28,945 bases of DNA. Source: Vermamoeba vermiformis (lineage: Eukaryota). The number at the start of each line of letters is the position of its first letter. The stretch's first letter is position 1. The notes beneath the pieces are model-generated. The model saw nothing but the letters and a program-made list of their open reading frames with translations, ran no database searches and had not been told where the DNA came from. Positions 2,342 to 25,300 of the stretch are shown here, one piece after another. The DNA lies in contig JBEWZL010000064.1 in assembly GCA_045837725.1 (NCBI GenBank), positions 434,001 through 462,945 on the forward strand. The letters run 5' to 3'. A program made the position numbers and the translations under genes.

Positions 2342-5300
2342 ATGAGTCAAGTAGAAACTCAGAAGCCTATTGGCAAACCGCCTTTGGCAAAGAAGGCTTC
2401 GTAAGTCCGAATCGCAGATCGTTAACAAACTAAAAATCCTTCTAATACCAAAACAATTATATAATACGAATAATAATAAGAGATAGCTTATGCACTCACG
2501 AACTGATTTATGTCAGACTTGGCAAATATTTGATTTTCTGAATATCCTCTTTCAAGACTTTTCTCTATTATTTACCCTGCTTCTCAGGCCCTATTATTTT
2601 AATATTAATCCATATATTTTTAAAGGCCCAAAAATCAAAAGCAAGAGGCTTCAAGAGAACCACTAGCACGATCCAGCTCGAAAAAGAACGTACCTACGCC
2701 TCAATCTCAATATCTTCGTAGAAACTCGTCTTTAGCGAATGTTGTAAGTGTGAATAATCAATATTTCCATTTTTTACGAATATTAAATCAAAATTGATGG
2801 ATTTGGATCACACGCGGCTCAACCTTTGCTAAAATTTATTTTATGGCAGAAATCTGTTGACCCAAAGGCAAAACAAGCTGCTGCGAGTGCGAGATTAGAA
2901 GGATTTGCAACTCAAACAAGTCAAAGGGATAGCAGAAATTGGAAACAGCTGATCTCGCATTTGAATCGGTAAGCCTCATAAATTTCTACTCTTAGCATTG
3001 CTAAGAAAAATCATGCAATCTGAATCTTTAATTTCCCGCCTAATTTCATATCGAAGATTTCAATTTTGAATTTTCTGAACTAATTCTCAACCTTTCAGCA
3101 ACGTGAGTGACATCTACTACGAGTGCGAGCGATTCAATAGCTTGGACCGTTGCAATGAAGCTATTAAAGTCTTTGATGAGGCCCTGACGGACTTGACTAA
3201 GGTAAGATCTTGGCAACTAAACATAGCTTCGAACACCTCTAATTCATGCTTTAGCTGAAAGATGTCATAGTGTCCCTTGACCTCGAAGCTTCTTCGAGCA
3301 GTGTGGCAAAGGACGACTCAATGGACGACCTTAAAGAGAACATTGAAGAGAATAAGGAAGCAGCCGGTAAGCGCATCAAAGAGGACCATTTGACACGTGT
3401 CATTACTGACGAATTCTTGAAGCTCCATTGACTTCTTGGGCCGACATTGTTCTCGCGCAAGAAAGATCGTCATCTGCTGGTCTTAAAGAGCGGCCTCCAA
3501 GATTGTCTTGGGACCGCAAACGAAAAACTCCTGAGGAGATTTTGCGTGAGCAAGAAGAAAAGCTTGCTAAGGCCCAAAAGATCCGCGAGACCAATCAAAG
3601 CAATATTGTTGCCAAGGCTAAGAATAGCACCGCTAAAGTCATCGAGAAGGTATGAAAATTTTTCTTTCGAAACCGCAACCTTGTGTCTAACAATCTGTTC
3701 AGATCAAAGAAGTGAGTGCTCGTGAGACGAAGAAACGCTTGAAGACTCAGCAAGAGATTGCTGAAAAGCACGAACGAGCTGACTTGCGCCATGAAGCCCA
3801 CGTGAAGGAGAAGAAGACGAAAGCCGAATTCGAGAGCACCAAAGTGAAAGAAGTCGCTTGGATCAATGTCATGAAGTACGTATGACTCCATTTACTCCGA
3901 AACACTTACTAACGAGTCCTTACAGCGTTGAGAACAAAAAGCTCGAAATTCAACAAAAGCTCGACGATGCTGAGGCTCGTCGATTAGAGCTCTTGGAAGA
4001 AGAAAAGAAATGGCGCCAAGACAAGCGCCGTTTGAAGCGAGTGTGCAAGTACTGCGAGTGCGAGATTCGTTCAAAGGACTATTTGATTAGTCACTTGACG
4101 AGCAAGCAACACAAAGCTGCACTGAAGAAGCTTAATTTGGACGAAGCTGCAGCCAATCAGGACTGTATTATAACCATTCCGTTGTACCCCGGTAAGTCCA
4201 ACCGACTCGTGCTCGAAGTTATTGTGCTGATTTTTTTTGTGGTGTAGTTGGCAAGGCAATTGAACCGTTGAGTGATGAGGAGCGTCATAAAATCAAAAAA
4301 AGAGAACAAAATATGAAAAAACGCGCTAAAAAGCTCAAGGCCAAAATGTCCGCTCAAGCCGAGTCATTCGTGAAGCCTTTAACCGAAGCCCCTTCGACTA
4401 CAGCCAAGTCTCAAAGTGTCAAGTTGGTCGAAGACATTGACGCGGCTATTAAGCAAAAGAACTACGGTGTGCTTGATTCTTTGTTGACCAAACTATGGCG
4501 CACGTTCCACAACAATAACGAGGTGCAGTTAACAAACTCTTTTGATTAGCGCAATTAACTCATTTTTTTACCTCAGAGAGTTGATGAGCCGTTCAAAAAC
4601 ATCAAAAACATTACCATTTTAGTATCCATATTAGATCTGCCCCTGAACTCTCAAGGATCCGTCAAGTAAGTTTCCTTTTTTTCAGATCCACGTGCGCCGA
4701 ACTAACTTTTTGCTCAGAGTATTGAAATCAGTATTCGATATCATCAAACTTGGTATTAAAGATGATGAATTCAAACGCCTCTTCTTTTTATCGAACCAAC
4801 TTGAAGCCATCATTGAGTTCATACTTGAAGCACTTTAGCGTCAAGAACTACGAGACATTGCTCGGTGACGCGTTCAAGATCGTCTCGTCTTTATTGGTTC
4901 ACTTTACACCCGACGAAGAAGCTAAACTTACTATGATCAACACTATAAGGTAAAGATCACCTCCGCAACAGCAATATATAATCTATATTAACGTTCGTTT
5001 TAGCTTTTTATTGGCGACACCGCTCCTCGAGCTAATCAAGCAGCGCTGGGGCGAGCTTCGCGTTATTTTCCCTATGCCTGCGAACCAACTAGACTTCAAC
5101 ATGGCCCTCGAGATTATGTCAACTTTATGGGCCATCACCAACTTTGTGTTGACGCTCCAAAATGACAAATCAAGTGACGCTAAACAAATGACCTTGGACC
5201 TAACCACCGCATTTACTGAGACCTCTGGCGTCGGTAAGTACATTTAGAATGGGCTAATGAATGAGTACTAACTAATGCTTTAGGTATTATTCTGCTCATG

Positions 5301-15978: not shown

Positions 15979-17448
15979 ATGAAACAGGCAGCAAAGAATA
16001 ATTTACATGGAATTACAGTAGACAAGGACCATTTAGTAATAAGATTTGATGCTGAAAAGAGTGGAATTAAAGCCGTTTGCCAAAGATCTTGGCAAGCAAG
16101 CATGCAAGATAAAAAGATTTAGTTTAATGAAACTATGGACAACTGTTGGGGAAGAAATACCGGATATTACGAGGAAAAAATACATCGTCAAAGCTTTATG
16201 TAAAAATACGTCAATAACAGCGCTAGATATTGATTCATCCGGAAGTAACGAGAAGATGCAGAATATTTGAAAGCGATTACGACCAATCCAAAATCATCTA
16301 TAAAGGTTCTATGCATCAAAATACCGACTAATTTGATGACGACTAATTTTGAAGAGGCTTTTGTTGGACTAAAACTCACCGATCTCCGAGCAGTTATTAG
16401 CAACACGCTAGATATCACAAGGTTATTAAATATATGGGCTGATATGGGCACATTACAAACATTTTCTTGTCAAGGCCAAATTCCGACCAACGCACTCATG
16501 CACTTATTGAAGGAAAATCAAGATCTAGAGAACGTTACTATCGCGTGCTACAGGCTGTCATATTTTGACCTTGGAAAGACCGTTGGCACAACACTTCAAA
16601 TAGCTCAAACATTAGCAGCGTTGCCTAAAATCAAAACACTAAACCTGCAATTCGATCTGTCTCCCGAAGAAACTGAAGCATTAATTGTTGGACTGAAGGA
16701 TAATAAGACTATTACAGAGCTCGGAATAGATCAATATTGGCTCGTTCACGACTTTAGAAGTTCCGTTTCAAATAAGATTGCAGCGCTGTTGTCCCTGAAG
16801 TACGCGTTACTAAACTTCAAGCATAATAAACTAACTCATTATTGTAGGTCATTGCACACTCTTCGTATGACCAACTTCAAAGGATTGACTTACTTCACTG
16901 GCACTAAGATAGAGCTCCTGGACTTCTCTCCGCTGTTCAAGATGACAGGCACCATCAAAACACTCGACTGTTACTTCGCACCTTTTGACACTAGCAAGTT
17001 GTTCCAAGTGATTGAGCAAGGCACGTGCTTAGAGCAAATCATTTTGCAGCACGACGAAAATATCAGCTTTGCACGAGATTTATTTGAAGTTTGTCGACGA
17101 AGAAATCCATTCATAATGATCGTGACAAAAGGACTGAGATTGACTCCAGAGAGATCTGCCTTAAAAAAAGCACGAGTGAATTTATTCAGCCGCTTATTGA
17201 CATTTAGAGTGCTCCTGCTAGCTGGAACAAAGGAGCCCGTTTTGCTAACTCAACTACCTCCCGAGATCTTGCTCATGGTCTTGGCGCACATTGTAAGCCC
17301 TGTGGAGATTTCGCACGCTCACAGTGTGCGGGATTACTTGGCTCTCTTGCAAACAAGAATTTCTCTATCCGGGAGTGCTGGAGTCGGAGCTTTTTTTTTG
17401 CGGCGTCGGTCAACTGCGGCCCGCTTAGCTCAGTCGGTAGAGCGCTAG
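15979..17448 (+). pseudogene. Apparently intronless RNI-like LRR protein with a C-terminal F-box-like motif; two frameshifts (pseudogene or assembly error)
   Basis: Three overlapping frames (15979-16122, 16046-16270, 16267-17448). LRR-like units ALCKNTSITALDI, LAALPKIKTLNL and GLKDNKTITELGI. F-box-like LTQLPPEILLMVLAHI near the end. The unspliced frame only stops inside the tRNA. Confidence 0.55.
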
Positions 17449-17491
17449 GCTTTTAACCTAGTGGTCGGGGGTTCGAGCCCCCCAGCGGGCG
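17419..17491 (+). tRNA. tRNA-Lys(UUU)
   Basis: Full cloverleaf: GCCCGCT/AGCGGGC acceptor, GCTC/GAGC D arm, CTAGG-CTTTTAA-CCTAG anticodon arm (TTT 17452-17454), GGGGG-TTCGAGC-CCCCC T arm. No intron and no encoded CCA. Confidence 0.97.
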
Positions 17492-17849: not shown

Positions 17850-19616
17850 ATGTTAGTTAAACTGCTTTGTTTCGTTACCTTCCTGGCGTTCGTTTTCAGA
17901 GCGGATGCTGCTTGTGGAAGTACTCTGTCCACTTCCATTACTAGAAGTGATGTTAATAGTACTCTAGAGTACTTATACGTATTATCTCAATATGGTGTCA
18001 CAGTAGCTAGTGTAAGTTAAAGCAATGGCGATAAAATCCTTTTTACTTAATCCGCAACTGTCACAAAAATCTTTAAATCTTTAAACCGCTGATCATCTTA
18101 TAAATACGTATTTAATTACTATAATAATAATACTTTTATAGGGCAATGAATTAACTGTCGTGTGGAACGGAACGGATGCAGGAGAAGTTGAGAGCCTCGT
18201 AATAGCTGGCCAAAGCGCTAATATAACCCTTGTTGATGGTACAATATCCACTCCTACGCGTCAAAGAGTTCTTTCGGCAGCAGATCGCTCGACCGTTGGA
18301 CAAACAATCAACATCTTAGCTCTGATTCTTAGTAAGTCTTAATAAGTGCTAATAATACACCCAAAACGGAGGCTAAATCGGTTTTATTAATAGGTTTAGG
18401 TGCGATGCAGTATTTTCGCAAAGGTAATGTATTGCCTTAATCATTAAAAAGCAAAAAGTATAATATTAATTTAAAATTTACTAGGCTTCGGTTTGCTCGT
18501 TATTATCATTGCACTTTCGATGGCCAATTTGATCAGCTCCACCGCGTTTTCGTCCGCACCTTGCCCAGATGCGACCGTCACTCTTCAAATCCCTGAAGCC
18601 ACCATTCGATTCATCTGTATCAACGATGAGCCATGCATATGTGGTCCAGGATACTCAGGAAATAACTGCGATGGCCCTTCAGTTCCGATCTCGGCTCCGA
18701 CGAATCCGCCAGTCAGTCCTACTTGCAGCGACAATACTAAGAACGGCAATGAAACCGACGTCGATTGTGGTGGCTCCAAGTGTCCCAAATGTACCCCTGG
18801 CAAAACTTGCCTGATCAACATGGATTGCGACAGCGGGGTATGCACTGATCATGTGTGCCAACGTAAGTATATATATATTCATAAAGTGCTAATCACTAAT
18901 AATAGCACTTAATTTGACGAGCTCAAACGTACTCGTACACAGCTCGAATCTGATCCGGATCGCTAAGTTTATTTTTTTAGAACCTACTTGCTTCGATACA
19001 GTGCTGAACGGAAATGAAACCGACGTCGATTGTGGCGGTACAAATACCAATCAATGTCCCCTTTGCATTCCAGGACAAAAATGTTTGAATGGAACTTACG
19101 ACTGCGATAGCTTTGTTTGCCAAGCTGGCATTTGTCAACGTAAGTACTACTACTACTGCTTGAATTTTTATAATTATTATTTCGATGAATTAATAGTAAT
19201 GTATGAATTTAGAGCCGACGTGTACTGATAATGTTCGCAACGGCAACGAAACGGATCTTGATTGTGGCGGCAAATGTCCCAAATGTGGCCTTAACCAAGG
19301 CTGCAATAGCAATTCTGATTGCGGTACTAACTTGGTGTGCGGTTCAGATTTCCATTGTATTAGTAAGAAGAATTATTTTTTTTGAAATTTCAAAACTAAA
19401 AGGTTTTTTAGGTGTGTGCAACGATGGCGTACAAAATAACTCAGAAACCGATATTGATTGTGGTGGCTCTTTTTGCGCCGCCAGGTGCATTAAGGGCCAG
19501 AAATGCTGGACAGGATCTGACTGCCAAAGCGGCCAATGTCTCAACCTTAAATGCGGTAAGTACCACATCCGTTCTTTTTTAACTTTTATGTAAATATTTT
19601 CATCGAACTAGCTTGA
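17850..19616 (+). CDS. Secreted/membrane protein with an EGF-like motif and four Cys-rich (C.D...N..ETD.DCGG) repeats (8 exons)
   Basis: Signal peptide MLVKLLCFVTFLAFVFRADA. Internal hydrophobic hairpin. CICGPGYSGNNC. Four repeats such as PTCSDNTKNGNETDVDCGGSKCPKCTPGKTCLINMDCDSGVCTDHVC. All junctions are in frame. TGA at 19614-19616. Confidence 0.85.
18718..19554 (+). repeat. Four tandem Cys-rich protein repeats separated by phase-1 introns
   Basis: Repeat cores (GAAACCGACGTCGATTGTGG and variants) at ~18751, ~19016, ~19248 and ~19444. Confidence 0.85.
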
Positions 19617-19960: not shown

Positions 19961-20281
19961 ACTTCGAGTCTAGTTGTAACCGTGCTATCCATAACACTGG
20001 TACTAATGGATATGCGTCGAAACATGCTTGCAATGAACAACGTCAGTCTCGGCACCATTTTCCGTGTTCGGAGTTCAGGCCCGATAAACAAAAATCTCCC
20101 ATGTGATTCACCCTATATGGGTTATCACCTGTCAAACGTTGTTTTCCAAATCTGGAATGTGTCATACCCCGAACAAAATCTGCGTTTCTCGTTTTGACAA
20201 TATAAACGACGTATCATCAACAAGACCACTAAAGTCGCTTTTGTGGGTCTTTCCAAGGTTAATTTCGTAGTGGATCCAGAA

Positions 20282-22386: not shown

Positions 22387-25300
22387 TTAGTTCTTTTCTC
22401 GTACAAAGTACGTTGGTTCTAATGTATCAAAAGAATCATCTAGTAATGAATGCGCAACATATGTAACCGGATGAAATAGCCATGAATAAGGATTGCCGGC
22501 ACATGGCCTATATAATCATTAGTTTACGAGCTCAGAAATTTAAATTTGAAAATATTTCCATATTTGGAAATCGGATCCCGCGCTTTGAACTTACTCTGAC
22601 AAATAGGGCTGAGCGGCAATAAGCTCTTCTAAACTCGAATATACATTCATATCGCCTCTGCCTTCTAATATCAACTCTTCAACGACTTTTTCATCATTTT
22701 CAACGTGCGCTCGTTTCTCGATCGAGTGACAATGTATGATCCTTTCTTGATCCACGTAACACAACGTAAAACATCCCACAGTGTGGCCTAATCGCACTAA
22801 ATATGTTCCCGGTGCCTTATCCATCAACCGCGTCAAACTTTCATGCGCAGTTAGATCTCCATGGAACCACTTTTGTCGTACTAAGAGTTTCATCTGCAAA
22901 TATAAATTTCATTAGTATTATAAAAAAAACTTAAATTACACCCAAATTTTAAAAACGAATAAACGATTTGTTCGAAATAAATTGAAATTGTTTACTCACC
23001 CGACCAATGATATCGTTCGATGAGTGCAACGGACCAAACCACTCCAATAGCTTTCCAAATCGTTCAATAAGGACGTACTCGTCGTTCTTAGAATGTGCTT
23101 CATTATTGTACTTCCTTACTAAAATGCAGTACGTTAATTTTTCACTGAAAAGTTGGTCGGTGACACGTACCCAAAAATAACTTGAAAACTGTTAACGTTC
23201 TGTCATCCATTGAGGATAATAATGGTTTTATAGCTTGATAGAACGCCTTCCATTGCACGCGGTCTTTATCGGTGAAATTTTCTTCCCAGAATTTTCGACC
23301 GTTAACATCGCTAATAGCCTGATTCGTAACATTAAAACTCCGTTACAATAAAGAGTATGATAGTATACTTACTTGTTCTATAATTAGCTGGTTGATCATA
23401 CGCACTATTTCTTCGAATCCAGGTCGCTGATCTGCGTCATGCGCCCAACAGGCTTGCAAAAGTTGCACGTATGACTTGGGACAATCAGCGGGGATTGGAG
23501 GACGAAATCCTTCAAATGAAATCTACGACATATTGTGAGCTAATATACCATATAATAAGACCGAGACTTACCATTTTGATGAACTTTCTGATGTCAGATC
23601 CGACGAGATCCAAGTAAACTCGTTGGCGACAGTAGATCTCCCATAAAACAATTGCAAAGCTATATACATCGCTCTTCTCGTTAAATTGCGAGCCCTATTA
23701 TTATAGATTAGCAAGCTGTAGCTTCATAAATGCAACTATACGTACAGTGAGGACTTCAGGCGCCATGAAAAATGATGTTCCTTTCCACGTGCCTCGATCA
23801 TCATACGTCGAGTGCCCTTGACGCAGTTTTTCCGCGAACCCGAAGTCTATTGATTTTAGTACATTAGAATCTCACTGGAGATTGAAGGACAGTACGGCAA
23901 AGGATAATAACTTGCCTGAAACGACCACACGAAGATTTTCATCCACGAGGAAATTACGAGTTTTCTAGTTAAAAAAGTCGTTAGTATAGTTAATATGGAA
24001 GCTATAGTATGGCTATATGAACTTACGACATCGCGGTGAATAATCATTGGATCAGCACCGTGTAACCAAGCCATGCCTAACGCAGCGTCTTTTGCTAGTC
24101 TCAGCTTGGTCAATAGGCTCAATTTTCTTTCTTTGTTGAGCAGCAGTGCCTCGAGGTCACACTTCATTAATTCAAAAATTATCATCAGTGCGCCTGGTTG
24201 CGTGGATGCACCCAAAAATAGCATGACTTGCGGGTGATGCATTTTGCTTTAAAATAAATAATAATTGATGAGTATTACAAGTAAGAAAAATAAATAATTA
24301 CCTAATAATTTCAACTTCGTTGCAAAAGTCATCGATCGCGTCCTCATCCAGATCTCGGTTATGTAAAATTTTAATAGCAACTTCTTTCGATCTAAAATAC
24401 GCAATTAATTATTGCAAATATAAATTGGCTCATATTGGCCATTTTAGAAAATTAAATATTTTTGGATCGCGATCTGTCTTGATCAGATCACGCCAAACGT
24501 TAAAAAAAAACGTATATGGAATAAAATAGCATTCACATTAAAAAAAAAGAAAGGATTTGAGTAGACTCATAGCCCCCGCATTCATCCAATGAAGGAAGTG
24601 TTCACCCCACGGGTCGGTGGAGCGAATCGAGGAGGCTGAGTATTTTCCTCGTCCACTAATTCCATCAAACAAATTGCAAAACAACGAGTTTTGTTCAGAA
24701 CTAATGTTCTCGCTTAATTTTGTTGTGGGAGCAAAAGCGATGATTCACAATGATGGCGCAGCAAAATTTTTCCGTTGGGTACGTACCTGACTATGCCTTG
24801 ATAGACAGTACCAAATGAACCATGGCCTAATACTCGTACGAGCTTAATCTCTTGTGGCGCAACGAAATGCGTTTGTTGTGTGACAGATCTGAACCGGTCC
24901 TCGAGCTCTTGTTTGATCCGCTTTTCCTCTTCTTCCCAATATTTTCTACGCTCTTCTTCCAATATTTCATATTGTGCCCTAGACCCACTATTAATAAAAG
25001 TATATATTAAATTATTGCAATGTCTTGCCTCCGTTGTTCAGCTTCGGACTTCTTGCTGACCGCAGCAAACTTGATCTGTTCGTTGACATAGTAAAGCCAA
25101 TCTTGCATCGTCTCCTTAGTTTCTGACAACAAATATATACTCTCTTTCTTCTATACGAAGCGTTAGAACTGTCTTTGTTATACTACAGTTGGCAACACGT
25201 GTCATGACGTACCTCGTGTTTCAGCTGAAATGCAAAGAGAGGCTTGTCGGATTTGATCATATCAGTGCCCTCAACGGTAATAACTTTGTAGCCTTCAAGA

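Follow-up and report, generated by a model that had tools for sequence, protein, structure and literature searches.

A kinase gene of an amoeba-like eukaryote probably harbors, nested in one of its introns in the sense orientation, an independent gene encoding a small structured non-coding RNA, whose transcript would be started by an upstream element, stopped in a T-run, trimmed, folded and at least partly joined end to end. This small RNA gene resembles no known RNA family and would represent a new one. It lies in a 28,945-nt stretch of DNA (hereafter the window), where an earlier note had described a structured RNA in what it took to be the kinase gene's sole long intron. That note missed the upstream promoter element, the removal of a 3′ trailer and the head-to-tail form of the RNA. 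The gene and all its features described below are on the minus strand.

Spliced RNA contigs from a near-identical organism (run X6, which holds spliced exons only) connect the exon that ends at 24787 with the one that begins at 24391. The 395-nt intron claimed at 24392–24786 is thus real, and the neighboring intron (24247–24301, same contigs) measures 55 nt. The flanking exons match the Pfam domains PK_Tyr_Ser-Thr (8.2e-11) and then SH2 (1.6e-08), an order which we take to resemble that of the Dictyostelium Shk kinases. Because of this kinase-then-SH2 order and of the DUSE-like block described below, we tentatively place the host among the Amoebozoa; protein searches returned no close relative bearing a name. 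The small RNA element has the same (sense) orientation as the host kinase gene, and the GC-rich island previously noticed in the intron is apparent, with a GC content of 0.51 at 24550–24649 versus 0.27–0.33 on either side. The window as a whole has a GC content of 39.7%, which is high compared with many dictyostelids.

Four distinct variants of the element are known, two of them partial. In a close orthologue (X4 record 4), the 124-nt element carries no change versus 12 changes in 123 nt of other intron sequence (Fisher P = 1.8e-4); identity extends down to 24540, and the sequences are unalignable beyond this position. In a distant orthologue, represented by the metagenome contigs L003 and L004, 102 of 113 element positions are identical (90%), compared to 95/113 and 78/89 in the exons (84–88%) and to 27/54, 33/56 and 87/154 in the intron flanks (50–59%). 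The core of L004 is also 105 nt long, with 96 of 107 columns identical to the window, and the intronic position of the element is common to three related genomes. Sequence comparison thus indicates that the element is under purifying selection, and since it is far more conserved than the intron around it, it represents a gene rather than a chance structure. A paralogue (X4 record 5) is a second copy that has 9 differences and 2 gaps and stands in unrelated flanking sequence, so that the gene, judged from these sequences, belongs to a small family, of which a relative has at least two loci.

Further copies were searched for in several ways. A covariance model (R1) detected no second copy in 39,578 bases (window, L003 and L004), the best other match reaching 11.1 bits (E = 0.87), and blastn within the window did not reveal a second copy of the element either. 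In the metagenome search, a pattern built on the 5′ block gave 0 matches, the only relative present there having one change in this block, while a hairpin pattern with four free positions gave 4 loci (L001–L004). Two of these, L001 and L002, are GC-rich, coding-like DNA alike over only 27–37 nt and were discarded as chance matches. Viral and genome contig collections gave 0 pattern matches each.

Run X16, a random-primed environmental root RNA library, covers the element at a depth of 5.7–16.5 over the bins spanning 24552–24656 and of 1.2 in bin 24657–24677; depth is 0 in all other bins, host exons included. The small RNA is thus present as a discrete piece in an RNA library. Two variant X16 contigs (129 and 128 nt) cross a joint between 24558 and 24662 and continue 36 and 30 nt past it. 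This joint marks the ends of the mature RNA, which is 105 nt long and runs from a 5′ G24662 to a 3′ A24558 (24558–24662). As 24558 is joined to 24662, it also suggests a 105-nt circle, the head-to-tail form being seen in one run (X16) at a word depth of about 4, in contigs that fit a circle and a tandem array alike and in a library that could contain some DNA. The mature RNA begins with GAAUU and its 3′ end is CUACUCA, with a GC content of 0.53 over 24558–24663. A 3′ trailer, AAUCC (24553–24557), separates the joint at 24558 from the T-run; it is absent from the mature RNA, and its five letters are identical in L004. The earlier description of a terminal stem followed directly by oligo(U) is therefore right as to the T-run and wrong as to the end of the mature RNA, which is 24558 and not the U-run. 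Raw RNA reads from run X21, of the labelled species, contained only 8 matching reads, from a diverged strain, and are uninformative on the RNA.

According to our in silico analysis, the minus-strand RNA is more stable than expected. The 124-nt fold has an energy of −40.5 kcal/mol versus −30.6 ± 3.2 for shuffled sequences (z = −3.09; 1 of 200 shuffles as good), while the plus-strand fold of the same segment reaches only z = −1.03 and is matched by 31 of 200 shuffles. The folding comparison on both strands suggested at the outset is thus significant on the minus strand. The 105-nt unit, folded as a linear RNA, gives z = −2.69 (about 0 on the plus strand), and the core of L004 gives z = −2.29. 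In a consensus fold of the window and L004 sequences by RNAalifold, 27 of the 30 pairs are unchanged, 2 have a change on one side and 1 on both, and none is broken. The 105-nt RNA is predicted to fold into a terminal stem, an asymmetric loop and a bulged helix, with two hairpins branching off a three-way junction.

The 7-bp terminal stem, H1, pairs 24651–24657 with 24560–24566. It is present in every fold and, being invariant in the window and L004, receives from their comparison neither support nor counter-evidence. Of the terminal stem first drawn, this inner part (24657–24651 with 24566–24560) is retained in all folds, while the outer GGAAUU/AAAUCC pairing proposed there lies partly outside the mature RNA. 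H1 is followed by an asymmetric internal loop whose long strand, GAGGAAAAUACUC (13 nt, 24638–24650), stands opposite AUGA (24570–24567). This strand is nearly invariant, the single change among the variants seen being 24650 G>A in L004, and it may be a binding site, possibly within a kink-turn-like junction. An alternative hairpin, CGAGGA/UCCUCG (24650–24645 with 24633–24628), was rejected as 2 of its 6 pairs are mismatched in L004.

The second helix, H2, pairs 24628–24637 with 24571–24580 and has two bulges in the RNAalifold structure. It corresponds to the GCCUCC/GGGGGC stem of the earlier note in a slightly shifted register; the CUCA/UGAG extension of that stem fails, as it reuses 24566, which is already engaged in the terminal stem. 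H3 is a hairpin of 9–10 bp with a 6-nt loop (24601–24626), and the 10-bp hairpin originally seen at 24626–24601 is recovered in the folds and covaries. H4 is a small UCC/GGA hairpin with a 6-nt loop (24585–24596), found in the folds and without covariation. The folds favor it over the UUCAU-UGG-AUGAA hairpin drawn before, which suffers 2 deletions and 1 change in the paralogue, and the changes of the paralogue at 24593, 24591 and 24589 are all within the H4 loop.

The search for relatives and for covariation advised earlier was fruitful, as the element is conserved and covarying among the X4, X16 and L004 variants. Three compensatory double changes were found in two helices, at 24632/24575, 24618/24609 and 24626/24601. 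In H2, 24632/24575 changes from C-G to U-A on both sides; 24630/24577 and 24628/24580 have one-sided changes that keep the pair, and 24637 A>G in the paralogue keeps a G-U pair. In H3, 24618/24609 changes from A-U to G-C (X16 record 2) and 24626/24601 from U-A to A-U (X4 record 5), while 24620 C>U leaves a U-G pair; the tenth pair is lost in L004 through 24626 U>A. On the single-sequence fold, the 19 listed substitutions break 3 pairs versus 8.9 ± 2.1 expected (P = 0.004), a value that becomes only P = 0.05 under a null model preserving transitions and transversions.

Upstream of the RNA, a conserved 22-nt block (24713–24734) contains the DUSE-like sequence TCCCACAA (24730–24723) and is proposed as a promoter element. 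The block is identical in L003, where the surrounding intron is 50–59% alike, and the close orthologue has 0 changes in 24703–24751. From TCCCACAA to the RNA start, the distance is 60 nt in the window and 61 nt in L003. The spacer between block and RNA start (24664–24712) evolves fast, with 9 changes in 24664–24702 in the close orthologue and, in the alignment with L003, identity at 33 of 56 columns (59%), and its length is kept (60 vs 61 nt). In two studies (PMC7919456, PMC3188802), the DUSE is given as [AT]CCCA[AT]AA, about 60–63 nt upstream, and it is described some 60 nt before many Dictyostelium ncRNA genes transcribed by Pol II or Pol III. TCCCACAA matches 7 of the 8 positions of this consensus, which is dictyostelid. 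A loosened motif, WCCCAHAA, occurs 10 times in the 57,890 strand positions of the window, which puts the odds of a chance match falling at the right distance, give or take a few nt, at about 1 in 1000.

Downstream, the oligo(T) tract TTTCTTTTTTTTT (24540–24552) is proposed as a Pol III terminator. Such a tract stands 5–7 nt behind the mature end at 3/3 loci, as 15 T in L004 and as TTTTATTTTTTT behind the paralogue, and the oligo(U) end read at 24552–24540 in the original description is therefore a recurrent feature. A T-run of this kind is taken as a sign of Pol III for the Class I RNAs of Dictyostelium in PMC7919456 and PMC3188802. Neither internal A and B boxes nor a TATA box could be found convincingly. 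Transcription is probably carried out by Pol III, as suggested by the T-run and by the analogy with DUSE genes.

The claim that this structured RNA is unlike known families is upheld by Rfam, which gave no match to it at the gathering threshold; over the whole window, the only match at this threshold was a tRNA at 17419–17491. At E ≤ 10, two scans gave 2 and 4 weak matches, with at most 14.8 bits versus gathering scores of 35–55. The vault RNA model (RF00006) was absent among these matches, and no Y RNA (RF00019) or RNase P/MRP model matched at E ≤ 10, which leaves the vault/Y-like and RNase P/MRP-like readings put forward before unsupported. The 105-nt sequence contains neither a RUGAUGA C box nor a CUGA D box; the C/D matches in Rfam reached 13.4 and 12.3 bits versus gathering scores of 39 and 49, one lying outside the element and one on the plus strand. 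No ACA is found three nt from the 3′ end, and the snoR143 match is on the plus strand with 14.8 bits versus a gathering score of 50. No snRNA family matched at E ≤ 10, and neither an Sm site nor a U6-type box was seen by eye. Among self-cleaving ribozymes, scanned in genomic order and without the head-to-tail joint, only CPEB3 appeared (9.3 bits, plus strand). No tRNA match falls in the element with ARAGORN or Rfam, and its A/B-box likeness, judged by eye, is weak. The tRNA-Lys at 17419–17491 is the only tRNA found by both programs in the window.

Several candidates were set aside by eye. Sequences of U12, U1, HDV-like ribozyme and vault RNA share only short, chance-type words with the element, and their Rfam models did not score. 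A role as rRNA guide, considered with a conserved 18S segment, rested on short shared words, and the compensatory change in H3 argues against it. As for a telomerase template, the sole repeat-like stretch is base-paired and variable.

The RNA could alternatively be cut from the spliced kinase intron without a promoter of its own, in the manner of intronic snoRNAs or stable intronic RNAs. Its sense orientation within the intron fits this origin, and its internal loop can be drawn as a kink-turn-like, snoRNP-type feature. We consider such processing unlikely: the RNA has no C/D boxes at its ends and no ACA, and snoRNA families score far below their gathering scores; moreover, the upstream block keeps a fixed distance of 60/61 nt, the T-run is kept at 3/3 loci, the second copy has other flanks, and X16 contains the element without the host exons. 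Head-to-tail contigs would also be expected from mobile or repeated DNA, either a SINE-like retroposon or a 105-bp satellite monomer, the joint then reflecting tandem DNA or its transcripts. The presence of at least two loci in a relative and the fact that L003 and L004 both stop inside the element, as assemblies do at repeats, agree with this explanation. It is nevertheless quite improbable, because three related genomes have the element at one and the same place in the intron and it has changed far less than the intron around it, compensatory changes preserve the helices, and the repeated unit does not include the conserved promoter-like block. In addition, no further copy was found by the covariance model in 39,578 bases or by blastn in the window, and the sense strand is followed by a T-run, not by an A-tail.

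The conserved structure in the sole long intron named by the earlier note could also act in cis on the kinase pre-mRNA, as a switch for splicing or expression. The copy between unrelated flanks, the promoter-like block with its T-run, the X16 coverage devoid of host exons and the defined 105-nt unit with joined ends make this splicing-switch reading very unlikely. We give as little credence to a viroid-like or retrozyme-like origin, in which the element would be the genomic copy of a small circular RNA that replicates itself or is processed by a ribozyme; such an origin would account for a head-to-tail form with two sequence variants in an RNA library. No self-cleaving ribozyme family scores on the genomic order (scan without the joint), the plus strand has no excess of structure (z about 0), and the conserved single-copy orthologues bear promoter and terminator. 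To our knowledge, 105 nt is also far below the size of any known replicating RNA.

For the independent RNA gene, which we favor, the following steps are proposed. The DUSE-type TCCCACAA would set the start 60 nt downstream, at G24662, and the polymerase, presumably Pol III, would stop within the T-run at 24552–24540. The AAUCC trailer and the U-tail would then be trimmed to A24558. The 105-nt product would fold into the 7-bp stem, the asymmetric loop with its near-invariant 13-nt strand, the bulged helix and the two hairpins at the three-way junction. The RNA ends would thus be adjacent at the terminal stem, and part of the RNA at least would be in head-to-tail form, for which a covalent circle is the simplest explanation. 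A more specific version, an amoeba RNA family transcribed by Pol III from an upstream DUSE-type promoter and then closed into 105-nt circles, is possible and is offered tentatively. As to function, our guess from the sequence is a stable protein-binding scaffold, with the invariant loop, possibly kink-turn-like, as recognition site.

Among known systems, the Class I RNAs resemble this RNA in being encoded by small ncRNA genes in several copies, with a DUSE-type element about 60 nt upstream and a T-run behind. In PMC7919456 and PMC3188802, Class I RNAs are 42–65 nt long with a GC content of 32–41%, start with AAG and end with CUGU, have a conserved 11-nt motif adjoining the 5′ stem, and lie in intergenic DNA without exception; the T-run behind many of their genes is taken as a Pol III stop. 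The present RNA differs by its 105 nt, its 53% GC, its GAAUU start and CUCA end, its intronic location and its lack of the 11-nt motif: CCTTACAGC, with at most one mismatch, has 9 matches in the window and 0 in 24540–24663. It therefore shares with Class I the DUSE at about 60 nt, one letter off [AT]CCCA[AT]AA, and departs from it in length, GC content, motif and ends. The spliceosomal snRNAs of Dictyostelium have an external promoter element at an equal distance, and U6, the Pol III-transcribed member of these DUSE-driven snRNAs, is near this RNA in size. Vault and Y RNAs, whose defining protein partners are the vault particle and Ro60, are also made by Pol III, measure about 100 nt and have paired ends that form a terminal stem with oligo(U) behind it; the present RNA differs in matching neither of their Rfam models and in having no clear internal A and B boxes. 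The literature examined describes no Dictyostelium vault RNA.

Small circular structured ncRNAs are known from the archaeal circular C/D RNAs. Other reports describe tRNA-intron circles (PMC6614914) and circular RNase P RNA isoforms (bioRxiv 10.1101/2025.06.30.662392). As in these circles, the ends of the present RNA are held by a helix and joined head to tail, here probably after Pol III transcription. The two ends of the 105-nt RNA are staggered, the 5′ end overhanging by 5 nt and the 3′ end by 2 nt. A bulge-helix-bulge cut by tRNA endonuclease was tentatively discarded, as this stagger would be opposite to the geometry of such a cut.

Kink-turns are characterized by a three-nt bulge, tandem sheared G-A pairs and binding of L7Ae-type proteins. 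As in the U4 5′ stem-loop and the C/D boxes, GGGGGC-UAU-GA-GUC faces GAC-GA here, which could form a three-nt bulge and then tandem G-A pairs between two helices. The present loop differs by a 12-nt insertion on the non-bulged strand, and 24650 G>A in L004 hits one of the proposed G-A pairs.

Small dictyostelid RNAs of Pol III type with an upstream DUSE are known chiefly as snRNAs and the 42–65-nt Class I RNAs. The new gene would add a longer, strongly conserved and highly structured family missed by database models, nested in an intron of a protein gene, unlike the Class I genes reported as intergenic. The dictyostelid literature examined, including PMC7919456, PMC3188802, 10.64898/2026.03.01.708701 and PMC13100048, mentions neither a DUSE-promoter RNA with a length of about 105 nt nor any small circular RNA, and its supplementary tables may list more DUSE-linked candidates. 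In PMC7919456, the Class I study, the DUSE motif and its distance are not expected to be conserved outside Dictyostelia; should the host fall outside this group, its conserved TCCCACAA block at 60 nt would widen the range of this promoter type. The RNA is also a candidate for a naturally circular small ncRNA other than a tRNA intron, with exact ends, a junction and a proposed promoter. If G24662 is the true start, the RNA would presumably bear a 5′ triphosphate, which, as we understand it, known ligation routes do not accept, and closure of the circle would require an unknown 5′-end processing or an unusual ligation chemistry. A DUSE-driven Pol III circle, if true, would correspond in nature to the engineered Pol III circular RNAs and, tRNA introns aside, would constitute a new class of stable circular ncRNA.

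The window is eukaryotic (GC 39.7%), and its kinase gene, on the minus strand, has short GT-AG introns and encodes a PK_Tyr_Ser-Thr domain followed by SH2 (Pfam 8.2e-11 and 1.6e-08). Spliced RNA contigs from X6, a public sequencing run of a near-identical organism, connect 24787 with 24391 and 24302 with 24246, which confirms both the long 395-nt intron (24392–24786) and the 55-nt intron next to it. GC inside the long intron reaches 0.51 over 24550–24649 versus 0.27–0.33 around it. Together with the splice joints, this bears out the GC-rich island that an earlier note had described in a 395-nt intron, here termed the element (24540–24663, minus strand).

Relatives of the element were drawn from public runs and metagenome contigs. 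A close orthologue of the same locus, a 552-nt DNA contig from a water metagenome (X4 record 4), has all of its 15 differences within 24664–24900 and none in 24540–24663; the element carries 0 changes in 124 positions versus 12 in 123 for the remaining intron (Fisher P = 1.8e-4). Past the T-run, the two introns are unalignable. Scanning metagenomes with a hairpin pattern returned four loci, two of which were GC-rich, coding-like DNA and were discarded as chance. The other two, contigs L003 and L004, come from a more distant relative; they are halves of one locus, and their overlap falls in the element. Compared with the window, 102/113 columns are identical in the element, 95/113 in the upstream exon, 78/89 in the downstream exon, 27/54 in the intron from the 5′ splice site to the promoter block, 33/56 in the spacer and 87/154 in the 3′ part of the intron. 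The element is thus conserved no less than coding sequence, and the relatives show it to behave as a gene under selection. Both contigs stop inside the element (L003 7659–7762 and L004 2764–2871, overlapping by ~106 nt); such breaks, typical of assemblies at repeats, hint at more identical copies in that genome. A 196-nt contig (X4 record 5) holds a paralogue with nine differences and two gaps in unrelated flanks, and therefore at least two loci exist.

[quoted passage not shown] According to three sources, DUSE sits ~60–63 nt before many Dictyostelium ncRNA genes and is common to Pol II and Pol III genes, and a T-run downstream of Class I RNAs, small dictyostelid ncRNAs, is taken as a Pol III stop (PMC3188802, PMC7919456, 10.64898/2026.03.01.708701). 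The 22-nt block around TCCCACAA is identical in L003, where the spacer is 61 nt, yet only 59% alike in sequence. The close orthologue has 0 changes in 24703–24751 and nine in 24664–24702. With the motif loosened, the window has 10 matches versus 5.2 ± 2.3 expected, which puts a chance match at the right distance at ~1 in 1000. Each of the three loci seen has a T-run behind the RNA (TTTCTTTTTTTTT in the window, 15 T in L004 and TTTTATTTTTTT after the paralogue).

In X16, a random-primed RNA library from a root metagenome, coverage is limited to 24558–24662, with depth 0 over the remaining intron and both exons. Its two contigs are two sequence variants (129 nt with one difference, 128 nt with eight). 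They pass from mid-RNA to 24558 (or 24560) and directly to 24662 (or 24656, seven homologous letters lying between), and extend 36 and 30 nt past this joint. Given a word depth of ~4, joint-spanning reads must be roughly as frequent as internal ones. The joint places the mature ends at 5′ G24662, the start also predicted by promoter spacing, and 3′ A24558, so that the RNA must lose both its AAUCC trailer and its U-tail. For these contigs of a single run, the most straightforward interpretation is a 105-nt circle around which reverse transcriptase ran repeatedly; this would also account for so short an RNA entering a standard library. Head-to-tail contigs could also come from tandem DNA or multimeric RNA. 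In the circular form, the modelled joint would fall in a 7-nt loop closing the terminal stem (H1). Folded as a circle, the 105-nt sequence gives z = −2.14 against shuffles (18 of 500 as good), and the plus strand shows no excess structure (z about 0).

Scored against shuffles on both strands, as the earlier note had proposed, the 124-nt element has a minus-strand folding energy of −40.5 kcal/mol versus −30.6 ± 3.2 (z = −3.09; 1/200 shuffles as good), and on the plus strand z is −1.03. RNAalifold on two sequences, the window and L004, gives a minus-strand consensus with an invariant 7-bp H1 (24657–24651 with 24566–24560), an asymmetric 13 x 4 nt internal loop, a bulged helix H2 (24637–24628 with 24580–24571), and a three-way junction bearing H3 (24626–24601, 9–10 bp) and a small hairpin, H4. 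The 10-bp hairpin and inner terminal stem folded by eye in the earlier note were recovered; its UUCAU/AUGAA hairpin and outer GGAAUU/AAAUCC stem were not. Between window and L004, 27 of the 30 consensus pairs are unchanged, one differs on both sides, two differ on a single side and no pair is lost; a tenth H3 pair is broken by one change in L004. Compensatory double changes occur in H2 at 24632/24575 (C-G to U-A, L004) and in H3 at 24618/24609 (A-U to G-C, X16 record 2) and 24626/24601 (U-A to A-U, X4 record 5). Changes at 24620 and 24637 preserve G-U pairs, on the minus strand alone, and the other listed variant substitutions are at loop positions. On the single-sequence fold, the 19 listed substitutions break three pairs versus 8.9 ± 2.1 under random placement (P = 0.004; P = 0.05 when the randomisation keeps transitions and transversions as they are). 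Across all variants, the loop strand of 13 nt, GAGGAAAAUACUC (24650–24638), changes only once. Together with UAUGA on the facing strand, it could form a putative kink-turn-like junction, a reading weakened by 24650 G>A in L004.

At gathering thresholds, Rfam matched nothing in the whole window but an intact tRNA-Lys (UUU) at 17419–17491 (+; 74.7 bits), also the sole Rfam or ARAGORN match there. At E up to 10 there were two weak matches in the region and four for the element alone, mostly on the plus strand, with 9–15 bits versus gathering scores of 35–55; no family was recognised. The suggested vault/Y-like and RNase P/MRP-like identities found no match, no Rfam model of vault, Y, snRNA, RNase P/MRP or ribozyme being hit at E up to 10, and the idea of a splicing switch was not supported. 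The RNA has neither C/D nor H/ACA boxes, and a tRNA was ruled out. No second copy was found in the window, a covariance model built for this RNA found no further copy in the 39,578 bases of the window, L003 and L004, and scans of viral and prokaryotic collections gave 0 matches. The literature searched, which did not include the founding two Dictyostelium ncRNA papers or any supplements, described no such RNA. The initial observation is confirmed. Its interpretation, a small RNA of no recognised family whose end is of Pol III type, is supported and refined: the evidence favours a conserved gene of its own, with a promoter resembling DUSE and a stop at the T-run, whose 105-nt product is probably circular. 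The kinase–SH2 order and the promoter block suggest an amoebozoan, dictyostelid-like source. Very tentatively, this RNA could act as a stable protein-binding scaffold, with the invariant loop as candidate recognition site.

The Class I RNA motif CCTTACAGC has one exact copy, at 3918–3926 (+) within a long open frame, which is probably chance; with at most one mismatch it occurs nine times in the window versus 4.3 expected. A second DUSE-like motif, ACCCACAA, lies at 20248–20241 (minus), with a G (20180) exactly 60 nt later. In this stretch (20040–20248, minus) an 8-bp terminal pairing, GUUCGGGG / CUCCGAAC, surrounds the Sm-site-like GAUUUUUG; the folding z-score, −1.29, falls short of significance, and Rfam gives nothing at E ≤ 10. 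Several exons within 18475–19593 (+) encode repeated cysteine-rich modules with the common motif ETD(V/I)DCGG...C..C; a Pfam search of the one scanned, 18475–18912, gave no hit at E ≤ 0.01. Over 24804–24885, raw RNA reads of run X21, which carries the species label also given to the DNA run that best covers the window, show numerous exon differences from the window. Seven of the eight placed reads are <95% alike to it, so this label spans diverged strains or species.
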